Shown one piece after another: positions 4,272-26,682 of a stretch of DNA of 32,000 bases. The DNA lies in contig NZ_CP043316.1 in NCBI RefSeq assembly GCF_008189405.1, positions 120,001 to 152,000 on the forward strand, in the 5' to 3' direction. The DNA comes from Candidatus Saccharimonadota bacterium (GTDB taxonomy: Bacteria > Pseudomonadota > Alphaproteobacteria > CAJXXZ01 > 1604HC). The notes beneath the pieces were generated by a model. That model was given only the letters and a program-made list of their open reading frames with translations. It ran no database searches and was not told where the DNA came from. Position 1 is the stretch's first letter, and every line of letters begins with the position of its first letter. The position numbers and the translations under genes were made by a program.

Positions 4272-4790
4272 ATGCGTAGTTATAGATTAGTCTGTGTATT
4301 ACAACAGATTCTTTCAGCTGAAGAAGCACAATTGCAAGTTGATAAAATTACAAATCATCTTACAGAAAATAATGGTGAAATCATTGGTGTGAAGAATTTT
4401 GGTTTGATGAAGTTAGCTTATCAAATGAATAGAAATGCACGTGGTCATTATTTTATTATAGATTTTAAGCTTGATCCTTTGAAAGTTAAATCACTAAGAA
4501 GTTTAATGAGTTTGAATGATAAGTTTTTAAGAGATATTATTGTTATACTAGATAAAGAGAGTAAAACGTTAGATAAAATTAGTTTTGCTGCAGATAAAAA
4601 TAGAGAAAGAAAGCTAGATCTTATAATTGGGGAATCTGCTTTCTTGAATAATTTGGGTCAATTTATCAGTACATATGGTAAAATATTATCCAGACATATT
4701 ATAGGTATATCTTCAAAACAAATGAGATGTCTATCTCAAGCTATTAAGAGAGCCAGATATATTGGCTTGCTTCCTTTCAGAATTCAATAA
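4272..4790 (+). CDS. rpsF-rpsR: Single ORF fusing 30S ribosomal protein S6 (N-terminal ~100 aa) to 30S ribosomal protein S18 (C-terminal ~60 aa)
   Basis: The N-terminus MRSYRLVCVL...GLMKLAYQMNRNARGHYFIIDF...LNDKFLRDIIV aligns with S6 (E. coli MRHYEIVFMV...[22 protein letters not shown]...FNDAVIRSMV). The C-terminus LGQFISTYGKILSRHIIGISSKQMRCLSQAIKRARYIGLLPF aligns with S18 ([42 protein letters not shown]). No stop codon separates them. Confidence 0.85.
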   Translation: MRSYRLVCVLQQILSAEEAQLQVDKITNHLTENNGEIIGVKNFGLMKLAYQMNRNARGHYFIIDFKLDPLKVKSLRSLMSLNDKFLRDIIVILDKESKTLDKISFAADKNRERKLDLIIGESAFLNNLGQFISTYGKILSRHIIGISSKQMRCLSQAIKRARYIGLLPFRIQ

Positions 4791-17805: not shown

Positions 17806-18486
17806 TTGAACAGGAAAAATATTATAGAACAAGCAATCAAAGGGATAGATTTGATCAGTAAACTTGGTTTAGATGCTGATATAATTGGATTTAAATCAGC
17901 TGATAAAGTTTATGACTTACATGCAGAGATCCCTGTAAATACAGAGGTTATTTCTTTATATAAGAGTGATGATGAATATATACATTTTCTTAGGCATGAT
18001 GCAGCGCATGTTTTAGCTCAAGGGTTGACGCATATATTCCCAAACATAGAGTTTGGTAAACAATTTTTTAAAGATACAAACGTATTTGGATTTGATGTGT
18101 TCTTTCCAGAGCATAAGTTCACCAAGGATGATTTCCCAAAAATTGAAAAAGCCATGAAGGATGTTGTTGCAAAAAGTGATGATATTATTAGGCATGTTTG
18201 GTCAAAAGAGAAAGCATTGCAATATTTTCCGAATGATCAATTTAAGCAAGATATTATTTCTAATGCACCTAAAAATACAATCATGTTATATGAGCATGGC
18301 GATTACATAGATATTTGTGGTGGTCCGCGTGGAATGAATAATAGTCATGTTGGTAATCATTTTGTGCTATTAGATGTACAGGACTCAGAATGGATGTTTA
18401 ATTCTTCTAAGAAAATGCAAAGAATTATATGCGCATGTTTTAGGAATGAGTCTGAGATGAAAGATTTCTTAATGGAATATAAATAA
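17806..18486 (+). CDS. Free-standing ThrRS N-terminal paralog (TGS-like N1 plus N2 editing domain), with no catalytic or anticodon-binding domain
   Basis: 226 aa that align with E. coli ThrRS residues ~1-240: LRHDAAHVLAQGL vs IRHSCAHLLGHAI, YIDICGGPRG vs YVDMCRGPHV, and KKMQRIICACF vs KMLQRIYGTAW. The TTG start at 17806 is preceded by GGAGG at 17797-17801. It ends 26 nt before thrS. Confidence 0.75.
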   Translation: MNRKNIIEQAIKGIDLISKLGLDADIIGFKSADKVYDLHAEIPVNTEVISLYKSDDEYIHFLRHDAAHVLAQGLTHIFPNIEFGKQFFKDTNVFGFDVFFPEHKFTKDDFPKIEKAMKDVVAKSDDIIRHVWSKEKALQYFPNDQFKQDIISNAPKNTIMLYEHGDYIDICGGPRGMNNSHVGNHFVLLDVQDSEWMFNSSKKMQRIICACFRNESEMKDFLMEYK

Positions 18487-18512: not shown

Positions 18513-20489
18513 ATGATAGAAATCAATTTAGGTAATTCGGTAGAACAATTTGGGTCTGGTGTTTCTACTTTTTCTATAATAGAAGAGCTAGGGAATAAAG
18601 CAAAAGATGTTATAGGGTTTAAGTGTACAAAAACAGGCCAAGTATATGATTTGCATAGCTATTTACGTGGGCCTATTTCAGTTGCTCCAATCAAAACTAA
18701 TACCGCAGAGCATTTAGAGATGATTAGAAATGATGCAGGGCATATTTTATCTCATGTATTATCAGATTTATATAATGCAGCCACAGTAGATATTAAAATT
18801 ACAGAACATGGATTTTATGTTGATTTTTATTGTGATAAATCTATTTCTGAACATGATTTTGGCAAAATAGAGAAAAAAATGAATCAATTAATTATGAAAA
18901 ATGATAGATTTATTATTAACTCTTTGAATAAAGAAGAAGCATTAGGTTTGTTTGAGCAGTTAGGTAATAAATTTGCATCTACAATAGTTCAAAATAGTAA
19001 CGATGAGTGTTTTTCTGTGCATACACATGGGAATCATAAAGTTTTGGCAGAAGGATCTCGTAGTCTAAGTACTAAAAGTATAGGGAAGCATTTTAAAATT
19101 TTATCTATATCTGGCTCTGAATGGGAACATGGATCTGAGAAATTACAAAGGATTCATGGCACTTGCTGGTATGATAAAGAATCACTGGAAAGTCATTTGA
19201 AGAATATAGAAGAAAATTTAAAGTGGGATCATAGAATAATTGGAAAACAAATGTCTATGTTTAATATTGATCCTGAGATTGCTAGTGGAATGGTGTTTTG
19301 GCTTCCAAATGGTGTGAAAGCGCTTAATAAAATTAGAGAGTATTTAAGAAGTACCTGGGTCGAATATGGATATCAAGAAGTTTCAACCCCAATCGTAATG
19401 AACTCTAATTTATGGGATAAGTCTGGCCATACTGAAATGTTTAGAGAAAATATGATGTTTATGAGTTTGCAGGATAATGATTATGCGTTAAAGCCAATGA
19501 GTTGTCCTGCTCATATTAATATTTTCAAATTAGGAAATAAGAGTTATAGAGATTTACCTTATAAGTTATCTGAATTTGGATTATGCCATAGATATGAGCC
19601 TTCAGGGTCTTTACAAGGGTTGATGAGAGCAAGAAGTTTTACACAAGATGATGCTCATGTATTTGTTTCTGAAGAGCAAATTGAAGGTGTGATTCTAGAT
19701 TTCTGTGAGATGGTAAAAGTTGTTTATAAGAAGTTTGGATTTGATAAGATATTGGTATGCTTGGCAACTAGACCTGAGAAGTATATTGGAGAAATATCTG
19801 CATGGGATCAAGCTGAAAGAGCTTTGCTAGATGCAGCAAATAAATCTGATCTTAATTGTACAATTAATGAAGGTGAAGGAGCATTTTATGGACCTAAGCT
19901 AGAATTTTCAATTAAAGATAGAAAAGGGCATGTATGGCAATGTGGAACAGTACAAGTCGATTTCTCTCTTGCAAAAAGGTTGGAGGCTTTTTATACAGAT
20001 GAAAATGCTGATAGAAAAGCTCCTGTAGTTATTCATCATGCTGTTCTAGGATCTTTAGAAAGATTTTTTGGAATACTATTAGAGAATACAAAAGGGTTAT
20101 TACCATCATGGGTGCATCCATACCCTATAGCTATTTTGCCTATTAAAAATTCACAAGAAGAGTATGCAAATTCTATTAAAAATGCAATGAAGCTCTATAG
20201 TATTGATTGTGAAATTGATAATTCTAATCAAACATTGGGTTATAAAATAAAGCATTGGATAGACAAAAGGACTCCTTATATATTAATTATTGGAGCAAAA
20301 GAAGAACAGTCTAATAAAGTTACATTACGATTATTAGATGGAAAGGAAGAAAGTTTGACTTTAGAAGAGCTTATATCAAAAATTGGAGCTATGAAAGAAA
20401 CTGTTGATTCTATAGAGATAAATAGAAATGTAAATGATACAAATAGCAATGGGGCAAGTAGAACTGCAGATGGAGTTATAAATGAATAA
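18513..20489 (+). CDS. thrS: Threonyl-tRNA synthetase (full length)
   Basis: 658 aa. It has DHRIIGKQ, KPMSCPAHINIF, HRYEPSGSLQGLMRARSFTQDDAHVF, GEGAFYGPKLEF, WQCGTVQVDF and VVIHHAVLGSLERF. The Zn ligands equivalent to E. coli C334, H385 and H511 are present, followed by an anticodon-binding domain. Confidence 0.95.
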   Translation: MIEINLGNSVEQFGSGVSTFSIIEELGNKAKDVIGFKCTKTGQVYDLHSYLRGPISVAPIKTNTAEHLEMIRNDAGHILSHVLSDLYNAATVDIKITEHGFYVDFYCDKSISEHDFGKIEKKMNQLIMKNDRFIINSLNKEEALGLFEQLGNKFASTIVQNSNDECFSVHTHGNHKVLAEGSRSLSTKSIGKHFKILSISGSEWEHGSEKLQRIHGTCWYDKESLESHLKNIEENLKWDHRIIGKQMSMFNIDPEIASGMVFWLPNGVKALNKIREYLRSTWVEYGYQEVSTPIVMNSNLWDKSGHTEMFRENMMFMSLQDNDYALKPMSCPAHINIFKLGNKSYRDLPYKLSEFGLCHRYEPSGSLQGLMRARSFTQDDAHVFVSEEQIEGVILDFCEMVKVVYKKFGFDKILVCLATRPEKYIGEISAWDQAERALLDAANKSDLNCTINEGEGAFYGPKLEFSIKDRKGHVWQCGTVQVDFSLAKRLEAFYTDENADRKAPVVIHHAVLGSLERFFGILLENTKGLLPSWVHPYPIAILPIKNSQEEYANSIKNAMKLYSIDCEIDNSNQTLGYKIKHWIDKRTPYILIIGAKEEQSNKVTLRLLDGKEESLTLEELISKIGAMKETVDSIEINRNVNDTNSNGASRTADGVINE

Positions 20490-23179: not shown

Positions 23180-23264
23180 GGAGGGATGGTCGAGTGGTTA
23201 AAGGCAGCAGACTGTAAATCTGCCGACGGTTTCGTCTACGTAGGTTCGAATCCTACTCCCTCCA
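23180..23264 (+). tRNA. tRNA-Tyr (anticodon GTA), class II with long variable arm, no encoded CCA
   Basis: Folded by hand. Acceptor GGAGGGA/TCCCTCC with discriminator A. Anticodon stem GCAGA/TCTGC with loop CTGTAAA. Variable arm GACGG-TTT-CGTC. T arm GTAGG-TTCGAAT-CCTAC. Confidence 0.9.
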
Positions 23265-23271
23265 AATTTAT

Positions 23272-23343
23272 GCGGGCGTGGTTCAATGGCTAGAATGTCA
23301 GCCTTCCAAGCTGAAGACGTGGGTTCGACTCCCATCGCCCGCT
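23272..23343 (+). tRNA. tRNA-Gly (anticodon TCC), no encoded CCA
   Basis: Folded by hand. Acceptor GCGGGCG/CGCCCGC with discriminator T. D stem GTTC/GAAT. Anticodon stem TCAGC/GCTGA with loop CTTCCAA. T arm GTGGG-TTCGACT-CCCAT. Confidence 0.9.
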
Positions 23344-23388
23344 CATTTTTCGCTTAGAGTACTTTTTGTACACATATAGGGGGTATTA

Positions 23389-24591
23389 ATGGCTAAAGCA
23401 CAATTTGAAAGAACAAAACCGCATGTTAATGTTGGAACTATTGGTCACGTTGATCATGGAAAAACAACTTTAACAGCAGCAATTACAACAGTACTTGCAA
23501 AGAAGGGTTTAGCTGAATCTAAAAATTATGCTAACATCGATTCTGCAAAAGAGGAGAAGGAAAGAGGAATTACTATTTCCACTGCTCATGTTGAATATGA
23601 AACTGAGAACAGACATTATGCTCATGTTGACTGTCCTGGTCACGCTGACTATGTGAAGAACATGATTACTGGTGCTGCTCAAATGGATGGTGGTATATTA
23701 GTTGTTTCTGCTACTGATGGACCTATGCCTCAAACCAAAGAACATATTTTGTTAGCTAAACAGGTTAACGTGCCTTATTTGGTTGTGTTTATTAATAAAG
23801 TTGATGCATTAGATGATCCTGAAATGATTGAACTTGTTGAAGAAGAAGTTAAAGAATTGTTAGAGCATCATGGTTTCCATTCAGATGAGAAACCAGTTCC
23901 AATAATCAAGGGATCAGCTTTGTGCGCTCTTGAAGGAAGAGAAAATGATACAATTGGAGAAAAGGCTATCTTGGATCTGATGGATGCATTAGATTCTCAT
24001 ATCCCAGAGCCAACAAGAGAAATTGATAAAGATTTACTTATGTCAATTGAAGATGTTTTCTCAATTGAAGGTAGAGGAACAGTAGCAACTGGTCGTATTG
24101 AAACTGGTCAAGTTAAAATTGGTGATGAAGTTGAAATCGTTGGATTGCGTGATACACAAACTACTACAGTTACAGGTGTAGAAATGTTTAGAAAAGAAAT
24201 GAAAAGCGCTATTGCTGGTGATAATGTTGGAGTTCTTTTAAGAGGTGTTAAGAGAACTGACATTGAAAGAGGTCAAGTTCTTGCTAAGCCAAAAACTATT
24301 ACTCCACATAAGAAGTTTAAATGTGCTATTTATGTTTTGAAAGCTGAAGAGGGTGGTAGAAAAACTCCTTTCCACAGTAAGTATAGACCACAGTTCTATT
24401 TTAGAACTACAGATGTTACAGGAGAAATCACACTTCCTGATACAATTGAAATGGTGATGCCTGGTGATAATGTTAGTGATTTAGTTGTTGAACTAAACTC
24501 ACCAATTGCCATGGATAAAGAACTGAATTTTGCTATCAGAGAAGGTGGTAGAACAATTGGTGCTGGTGTTGTAACCGAAATTATTGAATAA
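23389..24591 (+). CDS. tuf: Elongation factor Tu
   Basis: 400 aa with [18 protein letters not shown] and NKVD, and near-complete conservation throughout. An AGGGGG Shine-Dalgarno lies ~10 nt upstream. Confidence 0.97.
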
Positions 24592-24610
24592 TAATTTTTA
24601 CCAAACAAGT

Positions 24611-24644
24611 ATTATATTATAGAAGATATAATATAATATTTTTG
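24611..24644 (+). terminator. Candidate intrinsic terminator after tuf (all-A/T stem, weak)
   Basis: attatattat (24611-24620) pairs with ataatataat (24628-24637) around a 7-nt loop, followed by atttttg. The stem has no G:C pairs, so its strength is doubtful. Confidence 0.3.
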
Positions 24645-24861
24645 AATATAATTTGATATTAATTCCCTATACTTTTGTTTTTAGTTATAAGTAAATAAAT
24701 TTACTTTGTTTTTATTTTATAAATTTTCTAGGTATTGCTTAATTAATAATTGAATTAAAATGTATTATTTTCAAATTATGTGTTATTATATCACGTAAGA
24801 TTTGATTTTAATTTGATTGATTTTAATTTCTAATAAATTTAGAAAAAAGATAGGAATAAAT

Positions 24862-26097
24862 ATGAACGATAATGTGAACACAAAAGTTTCAGAAGCAAAA
24901 GAAAGTAATTCTGCAGGAAGCAATAGAGATAATTCTAATTCTGGTGGATTTGAAAGAAGAGAACGTTCTGGTGGAAACCGTGATGGTGGTGGATCCAGAG
25001 ATGGAAGATCTGGCGATCGCGGCGGATTTGAAAGAAGAGAACGTTCTGGTGGATTCGGTGGCAGAGGCCGTGATGGTGGATTCAGAGGCGGATTCGGTGG
25101 TGGAAGATCATTTGGCGGCGGAAGTCGTGATGGTGGATCCAGAGGTGGATTCGGTGGCGGAAGATCTGATGATCGAGGTGGATTTGGCGGAAGAGATTCT
25201 GGCAATTCAGAAAGAGGAAGCGAAGGCGGATTTGAAAGAAGAGAACGTTCTGGTAGATTCGGTGGCGGAAGCCGTGATGGCGGATCCAGAGGTGGATTCG
25301 GTGGTGGAAGATCATTTGGCGGCGGAAGCCGTGATGGCGGATCCAGAGGTGGATTCGGTGGTGGAAGATCATTTGGTGGCGGAAGCCGTGATGGTGGATC
25401 TAGAGGCGGATTTGGCGGAAGAGATTCTGGCAATTCAGAAAGAAGAAGCGAAGGCGGATTTGAAAGAAGAGAACGTTCTGGCGGATTCGGTGGCGGAAGC
25501 CGTGATGGCGGATCCAGAGGTGGATTCGGTGGCGGAAGATCATTTGGTGGTGGAAGCCGTGATGGTGGATCCAGAGGCGGATTTGGCGGAAGAAGATCTG
25601 ATGATCGCGGTGGATTTGGTGGAAGAGATTCTGGCAATTCAGAAAGAGGAAGCGAAGGCGGATTTGAAAGAAGAGAACGTTCTGGCGGACGTGATGGCGG
25701 ATCCAGAGGTGGATTCGGTGGCGGAAGATCATTCGGCGGCGGAAGTCGTGATGGTGGATCCAGAGGCGGATTTGGCGGAAGAGACTCTAACAGAAATGGT
25801 TCAAGTTTCGGCAATAACAACAGATATAATGACAGAGATGAATCCAGATCAAATGATTTTAAGAAACATGATGATTTGAGCATTGATAACAACAATGAAA
25901 ATAGCGAAATTAAATTCGATAGTTTCGAAATTGAAGGTAATTCAAAAGTAACAGTTGATTCAGAAGATACAAGCTCAGTAGTAACAATTGATTCAGAAGA
26001 TACAAGTTCAGTAGCAACAGTTGATTCAGAAGTAGCAGTTGGTTCAGAAGAAGATTCAAGCGAATCTAACGATACAGAAAATTCTGATAACTCATAA
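24862..26097 (+). CDS. Gly-Arg-rich (RGG/GAR-like) repeat protein with acidic Ser/Asp/Glu C-terminal tail; no recognisable folded domain
   Basis: The ATG at 24862 gives MNDNVNTKVSEAKESN... A ~280-aa array of GGFERRERSG and GGSRDGGSRGGFGGGRSF units follows. The same frame then stays open for ~100 further codons of AT-rich non-repeat sequence (NNRYNDRDES...DSEDTSSV...SNDTENSDNS). Codon choice (AGA/CGT Arg, GAA, GAT) matches neighbouring genes. The strand call is not fully certain; see findings. Confidence 0.7.
   Translation: MNDNVNTKVSEAKESNSAGSNRDNSNSGGFERRERSGGNRDGGGSRDGRSGDRGGFERRERSGGFGGRGRDGGFRGGFGGGRSFGGGSRDGGSRGGFGGGRSDDRGGFGGRDSGNSERGSEGGFERRERSGRFGGGSRDGGSRGGFGGGRSFGGGSRDGGSRGGFGGGRSFGGGSRDGGSRGGFGGRDSGNSERRSEGGFERRERSGGFGGGSRDGGSRGGFGGGRSFGGGSRDGGSRGGFGGRRSDDRGGFGGRDSGNSERGSEGGFERRERSGGRDGGSRGGFGGGRSFGGGSRDGGSRGGFGGRDSNRNGSSFGNNNRYNDRDESRSNDFKKHDDLSIDNNNENSEIKFDSFEIEGNSKVTVDSEDTSSVVTIDSEDTSSVATVDSEVAVGSEEDSSESNDTENSDNS
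24943..25790 (+). repeat. Nested coding tandem repeat: 54-nt subunit inside ~204-228-nt higher-order units
   Basis: The marker ggatttgaaagaagagaacgttctgg starts at 24946, 25024, 25228, 25456 and 25660, giving spacings of 78, 204, 228 and 204 nt. Between markers there are 1-3 copies of the 54-nt unit encoding GGSRDGGSRGGFGGGRSF. Copies differ mainly at third codon positions. Confidence 0.85.
25954..26040 (+). repeat. 33-nt coding tandem repeat (x2.6) encoding (V/I)DSEDTSSV(V/A)T
   Basis: gttgattcagaagatacaagctcagtagtaaca (25954-25986) is followed by attgattcagaagatacaagttcagtagcaaca (25987-26019), then a partial gttgattcagaagtagcagtt. Confidence 0.8.
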
Positions 26098-26121
26098 GAA
26101 GAAAGTTAGTTAGATCTAAAG

Positions 26122-26145
26122 AGCTTTGATACACTCAAAGCTTTT
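26122..26145 (+). terminator. Candidate intrinsic terminator after the RGG-repeat gene
   Basis: agctttga (26122-26129) pairs with tcaaagct (26135-26142) around a 5-nt loop, followed by ttt. It starts 25 nt after the TAA stop. The T-tract is short. Confidence 0.4.
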
Positions 26146-26682
26146 AGAAGCTAAGTAAGTAAATTCTCAAAATCCATTTAATAGTTTCATGTTATATAAG
26201 CTGTTAAGCTCATTTGGTATATTAAAAAAAAGTTGATTAATTATACATATCACTTTAAATGTTTACAATTATTTTAATGCTATTACAATTTAAAAATTAC
26301 TTAAATATATAAAACCCTCTATATTATTTTGATTAATGCATAAAGTTTCTATATGAATCATTAATAGTAGGTTTTTTATAATTAGTTAGATTGCTATGAT
26401 TATAGATTATTTTGTATTAAAGTTTTCTATGTGGATTACTAGTAATAATAAATTATATTATATTTCACATGGCAGGATTGTTCTGTTATAATCTCTTAGA
26501 TCTTATAGCATCAAAGATCTATATATATTCAACTGAATGTATTAAGTTTATAAATAATCAGCTTTTTTTATGTTTGTAGTGAATCTTAGATTATTTATGC
26601 AAAAACTATATTATATATATAGAAATTAAGCTTTAATTTATTATGCTTATAAATTAATAGTTTAGTATTTATAATTAATAAA

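Follow-up and report, generated by a model that had tools for sequence, protein, structure and literature searches.

Analysis of a 32,000-nt window of the genome of Candidatus Cytomitobacter primus revealed an intact plus-strand ORF of 411 codons plus stop (24862..26097) that is very probably a real, constrained gene for a disordered orphan protein, referred to below as the Gly-Arg protein. The gene arose when a super-repeat of ~200-230 nt was amplified in tandem, and purifying selection has maintained its amino-acid sequence ever since. An earlier, sequence-only reading of this DNA had placed a ~412-aa ORF here, a length that our count resolves into 411 codons and the stop, and the 411-residue product was also obtained from an independent gene call. 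Ca. Cytomitobacter primus, of the Holosporaceae, is an endosymbiont of Diplonema japonicum with a genome assembled from PacBio HiFi reads (PMC13598402), and it is found pressed against the single mitochondrion of its host and at times enclosed (PMC13462478; PMC13598402). The genome is gene-dense, with 622 kb at ~30% GC, and Cytomitobacter-type genomes are described by George et al. (10.1101/719211) as having very few pseudogenes. The gene has tuf and gatB as neighbours, and 270 nt of non-coding DNA lie upstream of its ORF. The features of the locus are collected in Table 1.

Table 1. Coordinates of the Gly-Arg gene, its parts and the flanking signals within the window.
Feature	Position	Strand	Remarks
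All-A/U hairpin (15 bp) then UUUUU	24607..24646	+	right after tuf stop
Shadow open frame, 440 codons stop to stop	24786..26105	-	mirrors entire gene, common wobble positions
Shine-Dalgarno-like AGGA	24852..24855	+	6 nt 5' of ATG
Gly/Arg repeat protein CDS	24862..26097	+	OX638200.1 complement(592772..594007)
Polar N-terminus, residues 1-27 (MNDNVNTKVSEAKESNSAGSNRDNSNS)	24862..24942	+	no hydrophobic core
Gly-Arg repeat block, residues 28-310	24943..25791	+	net charge +21, pI 11.7
26-nt core copies	24946..24971, 25024-25049, 25228-25253, 25456-25481, 25660-25685	+	encode G-FERRERS-G
Asn/Asp-rich non-repeat linker, residues 311-345	25792..25896	+	
Acidic Ser/Asp/Glu/Thr/Val tail, residues 346-411	25897..26094	+	net charge -18, pI 4.05
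Stable hairpin, 14 pairs and one bulge	26115..26148	+	begins 18 nt past stop codon

Most of the repeat block, residues 44-311, consists of four super-repeats of ~68-76 residues each, laid out as DSGNSERxSE, GGFERRERSG, two to three copies of FGGGSRDGGSRGGFGGGRS and DDRGGFGGR; the 228-nt super-repeat shows 93% identity. GGFERRERSG occurs at residues 28, 54, 122, 198 and 266, the copy at residue 28 lying upstream of the super-repeats, and the five copies are spaced 78/204/228/204 nt apart, exactly as first read. The period of the Gly-Arg unit, originally given as 54 nt, is instead 57 nt (19 residues). The 26-nt core GGATTTGAAAGAAGAGAACGTTCTGG is nucleotide-identical in 5/5 copies and absent elsewhere in the window, with 0 occurrences expected by chance, and every core contains the 10-bp palindrome AGAACGTTCT. 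The 33-nt repeat reported for the tail was recovered in 2.6 copies (25947-26032) at 92% identity, and the C-terminal sequence SEEDSSESNDTENSDNS was borne out, the protein ending in TENSDNS.

Base composition and the differences among repeat copies both carry the mark of a coding sequence. GC content reaches 0.54 at 25001-25500 compared with 0.24-0.37 in the flanks, and within the repeat it is 0.62, 0.77 and 0.24 at codon positions 1, 2 and 3, respectively. GC is thus high at positions 1 and 2 and at genome level at position 3 (genome GC3 is 0.22), and the GC island is therefore driven by amino-acid content, as had been suspected. Copies differ mostly at third positions, again in line with the first reading: pairwise differences number 29/7/108 by codon position, and the unit cores have a pN/pS of 0.018/0.327. 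The differences among copies being mainly synonymous, the repeat DNA is coding. For super-repeats B, C and D, dN/dS is 0.09-0.32 (0.09-0.57 among all super-repeats), with dS among copies of 0.19-0.46. The non-repeat 3' part (25786-26094) is stop-free in 1/20000 shuffles.

These data bear directly on the idea that the region is GC-rich minisatellite DNA without a coding role, or else an artefact of assembly. Since three of the six reading frames lack stops throughout the repeat, the length of an ORF is no proof by itself, and public protein sets yield only a 73-residue fragment of the region, both of which would fit that idea. It conflicts, on the other hand, with the three-base periodicity in composition and the genome-level GC3, with the concentration of variation at synonymous sites and with AT-rich flanks that are open in frame. 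An artefact, which the sequence-only reading had named as a way in which it might fail, is further opposed by the HiFi-read assembly, whose reads are expected to span the 0.85-kb block (PMC13598402). We find this explanation scarcely credible.

The fragment just mentioned comprises the last 73 codons (25876-26094), acidic tail included, and corresponds to QEK38425.1 / WP_148971541.1; this tail piece (99% identical) is the sole part of the Gly-Arg protein found in public protein sets, and proteome-based analyses of C. primus are therefore likely to miss the gene. The accession number QEK38424.1 places a further record between tuf and the 73-residue tail entry. Exact public-protein look-ups of the antisense and alternative-frame ORFs, as candidates for QEK38424.1, returned no match, although the variants starting with TTG or GTG may have carried translation errors.

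Because the selection ratios are the same in the antisense register, only statistics and sequence signals bear on the choice of strand. That synonymous variation cannot settle the strand had been pointed out before, and dN/dS is indeed equal in both registers. The caveat was even understated, in that the antisense frame had been given as 24786-25895, whereas its open extent is 24786..26105. Read from its first starts (TTG 25895, ATG 25883), this frame would specify a Pro/Leu/Ser-rich product of 365-369 residues with PPNPPLDPPSR repeats and a hydrophobic C-terminus, running in the gatCAB direction. Besides its 440 open codons across the entire locus and a dN/dS matching that of the sense frame, such a product could claim co-orientation with gatB, just downstream of which two relatives carry a 291-301-residue ORF on the same strand, and a relative synonymous codon usage (RSCU) score in the non-repeat tail of 0.32 vs 0.39 for the sense frame. 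No similarity links it, however, to the relatives' 291-301-residue ORF, and a homologue search with the antisense and alternative-frame products found no such protein in public collections. With 1 Tyr, 1 His and 0 Gln in the sense protein, an open antisense frame is a mechanical outcome, and the hydrophobic C-terminus simply results from reading the A-rich 5' leader of the sense gene on the opposite strand. The open frame runs for 210 nt before its first start, and neither start has a Shine-Dalgarno motif.

Codon usage points the same way. The RSCU score is 0.29 for the sense frame (0.24 in the repeat), compared with 0.27-0.47 for 21 reference genes, -0.08 for the antisense frame (-0.19 in the repeat) and -0.40/-0.48 for the other plus-strand frame. 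The antisense codons are alien to the genome: CGG occurs 7 times vs 0/292 Arg codons in the reference genes, CCG accounts for 34% vs 5%, CTT for 51% vs 11%, and AGA for 0/18 vs 59%. The plus-strand assignment first proposed is thus favoured by codon usage, by the AGGA before the ATG and by the hairpin after the stop, and we judge that the antisense Pro-rich frame is not a real product, an antisense gene being quite improbable.

A motif comparable to the AGGA is present in about 8/21 reference genes of the window. The fold of the region after tuf (24586-24700) is not significant (z = -0.85); the hairpin downstream of the Gly-Arg gene has z = -2.95, with an equally good fold in 1/200 shuffles, and a terminator search called neither of the two hairpins a canonical terminator. 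Because the element after tuf is only weakly terminator-like, transcription could plausibly continue from tuf into the repeat gene. The downstream hairpin, which has no canonical stem-plus-U-tract, could act as a terminator or as an mRNA 3' stabiliser. In this AT-rich DNA a promoter scan had no discriminating value, its 13 matches not exceeding the level in shuffles (9.7). Both the RSCU scores and a codon comparison agree with the earlier claim that codon choice is native and tuf-like. GGG, AGG and GAG are avoided altogether (0/126, 0/62 and 0/30), and TTC and AAC are used at 0.48 and 0.38, close to tuf (0.40 and 0.42) and unlike other genes (0.20 and 0.15), a pattern present in the non-repeat part too; GGC, by contrast, is over-used (0.29), and tuf has none. 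Tuf-like codons are suggestive of high expression of the gene, and this codon evidence is weakened because the repeat copies are not independent; GGG avoidance may alternatively reflect avoidance of G-runs.

Comparison with relatives at syntenic loci and by protein search suggests that the gene is confined to Ca. Cytomitobacter primus. An exhaustive HMMER search of 1.84 billion representative proteins found only the protein's own 73-residue tail; in a local test of sensitivity, the Gly-Arg protein matched itself with E = 2e-215. An orthologue was absent from the syntenic site in 5/5 relatives, and tblastn without composition correction gave no match elsewhere in the window or across 105 kb of the relatives' loci. 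A conserved housekeeping role is therefore unlikely. Two weaker candidates were rejected: P0005 (HMMER E = 5.5e-5), a Gly/Tyr-rich protein with compositional similarity only, and weak tblastx matches to L002 (7450-7635), which fall in a Gly-rich stretch of an unrelated 315-residue signal-peptide protein, likely an outer-membrane protein. The suggestion that the gene occupies a position after tuf normally taken by secE-nusG did not hold, tuf followed by secE-nusG being found in 0/5 relatives. What sets this locus apart is that tuf and gatB are convergent in C. primus; they are co-oriented in 5/5 relatives and adjacent in 4/5.

The location of the gene exactly at this change in gene order, the fact that none of the five relatives has it at the syntenic site and the lack of a homologue anywhere searched raise the possibility of a young, expendable repeat-expansion ORF at a rearrangement junction, translated or tolerated without a specific function, with a regularity stemming from recent amplification and gene conversion rather than from selection. 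The identical 26-nt cores, which suggest ongoing homogenisation, would agree with such an origin. Nevertheless, copies that have diverged to a dS of 0.19-0.46 with a dN/dS of 0.09-0.32 are not expected under neutrality, the third positions of the repeat have relaxed to genome composition, and the AT-rich non-repeat tail has also been kept open. Moreover, a 54%-GC tract persists in a gene-dense 30%-GC genome of a type with very few pseudogenes (10.1101/719211). An expendable ORF is, on balance, rather improbable, and purifying selection on the encoded protein remains our preferred explanation.

A scan of metagenomes for GGFE[RS][RS]E[RS]xG gave 39 matches in DNA with a GC content of 0.40-0.76, none of it as AT-rich as the C. 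primus genome; these were mostly in wrong frames or unrelated ORFs and included 0 orthologues, and viral contigs scanned for this pattern yielded 0. One match, GGFERRERTGG, belongs to a metagenomic helicase-like ORF (L019) and lies in its C-terminal tail, which is rich in Arg and Gly; DEAD-box motifs were read by eye in this ORF, without a Pfam run. The Gly-Arg protein might accordingly be viewed as a disordered tail that was separated from a helicase, RNase E or Rho-type gene, itself lost or relocated, and that persists as an ORF of its own, since GGFERRER(S/T)GG is found in the Arg/Gly/Glu-rich tail of L019 and the motif also occurs on a high-GC RG-rich protein with an acidic tail (L016/L045). 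However, the metagenomic matches come from unrelated high-GC organisms and extend over a short motif only, the exhaustive HMMER search found no tail-bearing relative, and tblastn was negative across the rest of the window and the 105 kb of relatives' loci. The gene has its own ATG, a Shine-Dalgarno-like motif, a polar N-terminus and the 270 nt of non-coding DNA upstream, and its flanks hold no helicase or RNase remnant. The Gly-Arg gene is neither fused nor adjacent to a helicase or RNase gene, so this weak point anticipated by the sequence-only reading did not materialise, and a detached tail is very improbable.

The Gly-Arg protein has a mass of 41.8 kDa, a pI of 8.1 and a GRAVY of -1.43, and is composed of 30.7% G, 16.1% S, 15.1% R, 9.0% D, 7.3% E and 7.1% F. 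Residues 28-296 contain 115 G, 55 R and 24 F of 269, and 13/29 Phe have Gly on both sides; 12 RGG triplets occur in the protein, spaced 11-38 residues, and 36 acidic residues lie inside the Gly-Arg block. Domain searches returned 0 Pfam matches at E<=10, 0 in NCBIfam and 0 among PDB sequences, and AlphaFold2 gave a mean pLDDT of 37 with no secondary structure, upholding the initial impression of a stand-alone, domain-less Gly/Arg low-complexity gene with no folded segment. Disorder is predicted from one end of the protein to the other. In terms of its calculated charges it is a block polyampholyte, with a ~280-residue block of net +21 and a 66-residue tail of net -18. A hydropathy scan of the whole protein revealed no Sec/Tat signal peptide, a hydrophobic N-terminal core being absent; mean Kyte-Doolittle hydropathy is -1.36 over the first 30 residues, and the best 19-residue window (+0.24) lies in the tail. 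An intracellular location is backed by the absence of both a signal peptide and a hydrophobic segment.

We propose that the Gly-Arg protein would stay inside the bacterium and be made in large amounts, given tuf-like codons and a place directly after tuf behind a weak hairpin. By analogy with the Arg/Gly-rich extensions of DEAD-box proteins, it might bind RNA, or nucleic acid in general, via multivalent Arg/Phe-Gly contacts and serve as a free-standing RNA chaperone or condensate scaffold. The acidic tail would compete with nucleic acid for the basic block, either tuning binding or driving self-coacervation. With 36 acidic residues diluting the Arg of the block, and with RGG triplets that do not cluster, affinity for nucleic acid may be modest. 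The whole statement, a real gene together with an intracellular nucleic-acid-binding mechanism, is tentative, and we put its chances a little below even.

The main competing view is that of an exported, eukaryote-like effector that leaves the cell unconventionally, through a modified T6SS, in outer-membrane vesicles or by lysis. Once in the host, be it in the mitochondrion, the cytosol or the nucleolus, it would mimic GAR/RGG RNA-binding proteins, and host arginine methyltransferases or CK2-type kinases might modify it. In composition the protein does resemble disordered regions of the eukaryotic GAR and LAF-1/DDX4 types, S/T-x-x-D/E sites are numerous in the tail, and the gene is lineage-specific, as host-interaction genes often are. 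C. primus, moreover, sits against or within the host mitochondrion (PMC13462478; PMC13598402), and George et al. (10.1101/719211) report much coding capacity for secretion and many unexplained hypothetical proteins in these genomes. The accessible part of that source describes a reduced Sec, a reduced T2SS/T4P and a modified T6SS in Cytomitobacter, names a T1SS only for Sneabacter and describes no T4SS for Cytomitobacter (10.1101/719211). A T2SS/T4P route would need a Sec signal, yet signal peptide and hydrophobic segment are absent, and no VgrG, PAAR or other T6SS gene adjoins the locus, the neighbours being tuf and gatB. A bulk cytoplasmic protein would account for tuf-like codons and a place behind tuf at least equally well. 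The idea of export to the host, already put forward in the sequence-only reading, thus found no positive evidence and no N-terminal hydrophobic segment, and we consider it unlikely.

In bacteria, disordered segments rich in Arg and Gly are familiar as extensions attached to helicases, RNase E or Rho. A 411-residue form that stands alone and is kept by selection would separate scaffold activity from any enzyme, and would show that scaffolds can arise by repeat expansion despite extreme genome reduction. With its bacterium embedded in the diplonemid mitochondrion, the Gly-Arg protein is also a concrete candidate for symbiont-organelle interaction. In the boldest version, a free-standing eukaryote-like GAR-type scaffold would have evolved from scratch by repeat amplification, a doubtful proposition that we rate as an outside chance. 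If delivered to the host, it would engage the diplonemid's unusually elaborate mitochondrial RNA processing or the nucleolus and would become a substrate of host arginine methyltransferases; if internal, it would form a nucleolus-like RNA condensate in a bacterium, without a helicase core. If either is true, a condensate scaffold would have newly arisen in a genome of 622 kb.

Eukaryotic GAR/RGG regions include those of fibrillarin, nucleolin and GAR1 and the N-terminal disordered regions of LAF-1 and DDX4. An RGG/RG motif reportedly consists, in the definition of Thandapani et al. 2013, of at least two RGG or RG units 0-4 residues apart. The name "RGG box" used in the sequence-only reading is therefore apt for the composition and not for the formal motif: the Gly-Arg protein matches 0/4 of the Tri-RGG, Di-RGG, Tri-RG and Di-RG patterns, its RGG triplets being 11-38 residues apart in a block with 36 acidic residues. 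It does have the Gly- and Arg-dominated low-complexity tract with regularly interspersed Phe of GAR regions, together with 12 RGG triplets and predicted full disorder; like LAF-1 and DDX4 it intersperses its Arg with Asp, Asn and Ser, and like nucleolin it combines the tract with acidic Ser-rich sequence. Unlike GAR proteins, however, it carries no folded domain for RNA binding or catalysis, such as an RRM, a methyltransferase or a helicase core, and it is bacterial, with native codon usage and no detectable homology.

Among bacterial proteins, the Arg/Gly-rich tails of DEAD-box proteins bind RNA non-specifically and drive condensate formation, and the C-terminal module of CsdA drives RNA-dependent condensates in E. 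coli (10.64898/2026.09.17.752289). The C. primus protein shares the amino-acid vocabulary of these extensions (CsdA/DeaD, RhlE-type), as illustrated by the L019 tail peptide GGFERRERTGG. In contrast to them, it has no helicase core in or beside its ORF, its ~280-residue block is far longer than typical tails and highly regular, and it carries an acidic tail of its own.

The acidic tips of SSB and the Hfq C-terminus and the acidic tail of HMGB1 regulate nucleic-acid binding. The order of a basic region and then a short, strongly acidic C-terminus, which could fold back and compete with nucleic acid, is common to these proteins and the Gly-Arg protein, whereas the latter has no OB fold, Sm fold or HMG box. 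Its tail is Ser/Thr/Val-rich and itself repetitive, and it ends in ...ENSDNS rather than in the D-D-D-I-P-F tip of SSB, with no SSB/OB domain match.

The TRPs of Ehrlichia/Anaplasmataceae are acidic, Ser-rich tandem-repeat effectors that are type I exported. Short acidic Ser/Asp/Glu/Thr tandem repeats (here in the tail), an intracellular alphaproteobacterium and a lineage-specific gene are features common to both, although the bulk of the C. primus protein is a basic Gly-Arg repeat without sequence similarity to TRPs, and a T1SS is named only for Sneabacter in the accessible part of 10.1101/719211. Finally, the metagenomic L016/L045 proteins have an RG-rich block with ERSGGFERRERSGG repeats, and L016 ends in a long tail of Asp and Glu, a pairing of basic RG-rich block and acidic tail like that of the Gly-Arg protein. 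They differ from the C. primus protein in a folded helical repeat-like region between the parts, read by eye, and in their source DNA, which at 68-70% GC belongs to an unrelated, possibly actinobacterial organism. At the sequence level, their short common motif points to convergence rather than homology.

Analysis of the repeat gene, a Gly-Arg repeat ORF with an acidic tail located 3' of tuf, revealed all of the features listed in the sequence-only reading: the 411-codon ORF, the Gly-Arg unit, the 33-nt tail repeat, the acidic C-terminus and five GGFERRERSG copies at spacings of 78/204/228/204 nt, with the period of the Gly-Arg unit measured as 57 rather than 54 nt. Four super-repeats of 68-76 residues each make up the repeat block from residue 44 onward, and an extra GGFERRERSG copy lies upstream of them at residue 28. 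The protein (G 30.7%, S 16.1%, R 15.1%, D 9.0%, E 7.3%, F 7.1%) carries a net charge of +21 in the Gly-Arg block (residues 28-310) and -18 in the tail (346-411), leaving the whole nearly neutral, and its hydropathy peak in a 19-residue window was just +0.24. Consistent with the claim that the protein is domain-less, Pfam, NCBIfam and PDB sequence searches gave no matches, and AlphaFold2 returned a pLDDT of 37 without secondary structure. The product combines a long, mildly basic Gly/Arg/Ser/Phe block with a short, strongly acidic tail and lacks both a hydrophobic segment and any predicted folded domain.

Several measures establish the repeat gene as real and constrained. GC content by codon position in the repeat was 0.62/0.77/0.24 and GC3 genome-wide was 0.22, placing the GC island in positions 1 and 2, with third positions relaxed to the AT-rich equilibrium. 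This pattern is a signature of long-term coding constraint, and third positions at the genome level argue against a recent foreign origin, in line with the sequence-only reading. Nei-Gojobori estimates of dN/dS among the paralogous super-repeats were 0.09 (B-C), 0.16 (B-D) and 0.32 (C-D), with dS of 0.19-0.46, and pN/pS for the 15-codon unit cores was 0.018/0.327, indicating that the copies are not brand-new and that amino acids were preserved while synonymous sites drifted; a functionless young ORF is contradicted by these dN/dS values. The AT-rich non-repeat 3' part was stop-free in 1 of 20,000 shuffles, and together these numbers do not fit a non-coding minisatellite or neutral ORF. Long-read support also exists, since the assembly was built from PacBio HiFi reads (PMC13598402), which are expected to cover the 0.85-kb repeat block and make a collapsed or chimeric repeat unlikely. 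Neither the HiFi data nor the three-base periodicity fits an artefact or a repeat without coding function.

The 26-nt core encoding G-FERRERS-G was nucleotide-identical in all five copies, including the two N-terminal ones, despite their well-diverged flanks (dN 0.16-0.18, dS 0.28-0.44). The adjacent Gly, Ser and Phe codons vary and surrounding synonymous sites have diverged. The core contains a 10-bp palindrome, AGAACGTTCT, and GAACGTTC occurs nowhere else in the 32-kb window. Local gene conversion or nucleotide-level constraint could account for this identity.

The earlier caveat about a wobble-sharing antisense frame was sound in substance but understated, since the frame runs without a stop through 440 codons, mirroring the gene over its full length. 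As the caveat held, synonymous variation cannot settle the strand, because dN/dS is the same in the antisense register. An antisense stop in this register needs a sense codon for Tyr, His or Gln, and the scarcity of these residues in the sense protein (Tyr 1, His 1, Gln 0) accounts for the open frame. Codon usage and start signals contradict an antisense product. On a synonymous codon score for which 21 genes in the window ranged from 0.27 to 0.47, the sense frame scored 0.29 (repeat 0.24), the antisense frame -0.08/-0.19 and the other plus-strand frame -0.40/-0.48. The antisense product needs CGG seven times (0 of 292 reference Arg codons), and its usage of CCG (34% vs 5%), CTT (51% vs 11%) and AGA (none vs 59%) also departs from the reference. 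AGGA precedes the sense ATG, whereas no AGGA-like motif precedes the first antisense start, 210 nt into the open frame; beyond the sense stop lies a stable hairpin (z = -2.95), and an independent gene call gave the identical 411-residue product. The features able to discriminate all favour the plus strand, an assignment we hold with high confidence.

Hints of expression come from codon choice. GGG (0/126 vs 19% in other genes), AGG (0/62 vs 16%) and GAG (0/30 vs 27%) are unused, and TTC (0.48) and AAC (0.38) resemble tuf (0.40 and 0.42) more than other genes (0.20 and 0.15), a bias also present in the non-repeat part. The hairpin 3' of tuf is weak and all A/U, so that co-transcription with tuf is possible. 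These signals are only suggestive, because the copies are not independent, GGG avoidance may reflect G-run avoidance, and the GGC excess is un-tuf-like.

Coordinates of the repeat gene, other window features and loci compared
Feature	Record	Position	Strand	Remark
Repeat gene	window	24862-26097	+	
Repeat gene	OX638200.1 (GCA_951805245.1)	complement(592772..594007)		622,378-bp chromosome, Candidatus Cytomitobacter primus
26-nt core copies	window	24946-24971; starts 25024, 25228, 25456, 25660		GGFERRERSG unit
Tail in public protein sets	window	25876-26097	+	last 73 codons
Antisense open frame	window	24786..26105	-	wobble positions shared with repeat gene
Region compared with relatives, including the tRNA-Tyr/tRNA-Gly/tuf block	window	23180-26682		
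S6/S18 ORF	window	4272-4790	+	172 residues
ThrRS-like ORF	window	17806-18486	+	226 residues
thrS	window	18513-20489		
L002, L005 (C. indipagum), L006	other Cytomitobacter-like genomes			GatB 73-74% identical
L007	558-kb MAG			GatB 63% identical
L008	Nesciobacter abundans			GatB 57% identical
ORF-poor stretch	L008	13202-14546		3' of tuf
Protein with Arg/Gly-rich repeats	L016	1-1203	-	GC 68-70%
Protein with Arg/Gly-rich repeats	L045	532-3045	+	GC 68-70%

Comparison of the gatB/tuf neighbourhood in five relatives showed gatCAB and tuf co-oriented in all five and adjacent in four, with or without an intervening 291-301-residue ORF; in C. indipagum, other genes spanning about 6 kb lie between the two. 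The tuf and gatB genes are convergent in C. primus, with the repeat gene exactly between them at a rearrangement junction specific to that lineage. No relative's locus has a Gly-Arg gene 3' of tuf, making a housekeeping role unlikely, and none has secE-nusG there, which voids the argument that the gene occupies their usual position. Likewise, tblastn without composition correction found nothing related in 105 kb of these loci or the rest of the window; an orthologue omitted from protein sets would escape protein searches, and the DNA-level comparison covers these 105 kb.

Only in C. primus does the tRNA-Tyr/tRNA-Gly/tuf block point the opposite way from gatCAB. The ORF following gatB in L002 and L006 has no counterpart in the window, and its L002 version has a signal-peptide-like N-terminus. 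The N. abundans genome (616 kb) is otherwise gene-dense, but 1.35 kb of 16-23% GC after its tuf lacks any ORF of at least 40 codons and may be what is left of a decayed gene, or else a large spacer with a regulatory or structural role. Elsewhere in the window, a single ORF aligns with ribosomal protein S6 over residues 1-93 and with S18 over 126-169, and resembles an rpsF-rpsR fusion in which nothing separates the two parts. For a free-standing ORF just 5' of thrS, the match to the ThrRS model is confined to the model's N-terminal 163 positions, and that to AlaX-type editing proteins is weak; the ORF could encode a trans-editing domain on its own, and ORFs equal in size and position occur in L005, L006 and L007.

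An exhaustive HMMER search of 1.84 billion representative proteins, which would have caught a long sense-frame version, gave two matches. One is a 73-residue C. primus 'hypothetical protein' (QEK38425.1 / WP_148971541.1), 99% identical to residues 339-411; the other, a Gly/Tyr-rich protein, was rejected as similar in composition only. The full-length ORF was absent from the collection when looked up, and exact look-ups and a word-indexed search for antisense or alternative-frame versions were all negative. Public protein sets thus appear to hold only the tail. By accession number, QEK38424.1 sits between tuf and the tail entry. As judged from sequence, the locus encodes a lineage-specific, disordered Gly-Arg repeat protein missing from the searched public protein sets.

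The observations of the sequence-only reading stand, and its interpretation does so only in part. C. primus belongs to the Holosporaceae and lives as an endosymbiont in the diplonemid Diplonema japonicum, closely apposed to, and at times enclosed by, the single host mitochondrion (PMC13462478; PMC13598402). Given this life style, export to the host or mitochondrion would make biological sense, but the protein has no signal peptide, no secretion gene adjoins, and no suitable secretion system was among those reported (10.1101/719211). We infer instead that the protein is cytoplasmic, probably abundant, and binds nucleic acid in a multivalent manner. Its pair of opposite charge blocks suggests a tail that may compete with nucleic acid in binding to the basic block, or may drive self-coacervation. 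Weak points of the nucleic-acid-binder reading are the dilution of Arg by 36 acidic residues in the block and the RGG triplets, which showed no clustering when their spacing was checked.

In eukaryotic GAR regions, Arg and Phe within Gly give RNA binding and condensation. Arg and Phe embedded in Gly confer the same properties on helicase tails (10.64898/2026.09.17.752289). As for a detached helicase tail, neither a remnant in the flanks nor a related tail in the proteins and loci searched was found. When metagenomes were scanned at the DNA level with a degenerate pattern for the GGFERRERSG peptide, 39 matches were obtained (GC 0.40-0.76), none as AT-rich as C. primus, and viral contigs gave nothing. 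In three unrelated metagenome contigs (L021, L025, L046) the translated string CGGFERRERTGSSYSVKTR was identical; rather than a protein, the degenerate pattern probably caught a conserved RNA or non-coding element there. Only L019 and L016/L045 were meaningful. L019 encodes a helicase-like ORF with DEAD-box motifs whose Arg/Gly-rich C-terminal tail carries a GGFERRERSG-type peptide. The high-GC L016/L045 protein contains Arg/Gly/Asp/Glu/Ser repeats (ERSGGFERRERSGG) that extend over hundreds of residues, then a putative helical repeat-like region and, in L016, a poly-acidic Asp/Glu tail of about 100 residues, so that a basic RG-rich block and an acidic tail are paired there independently of C. 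primus. These proteins share motif and architectural logic with the repeat protein, not ancestry, and by its sequence the latter resembles a free-standing version of a bacterial RNA-binding low-complexity region.
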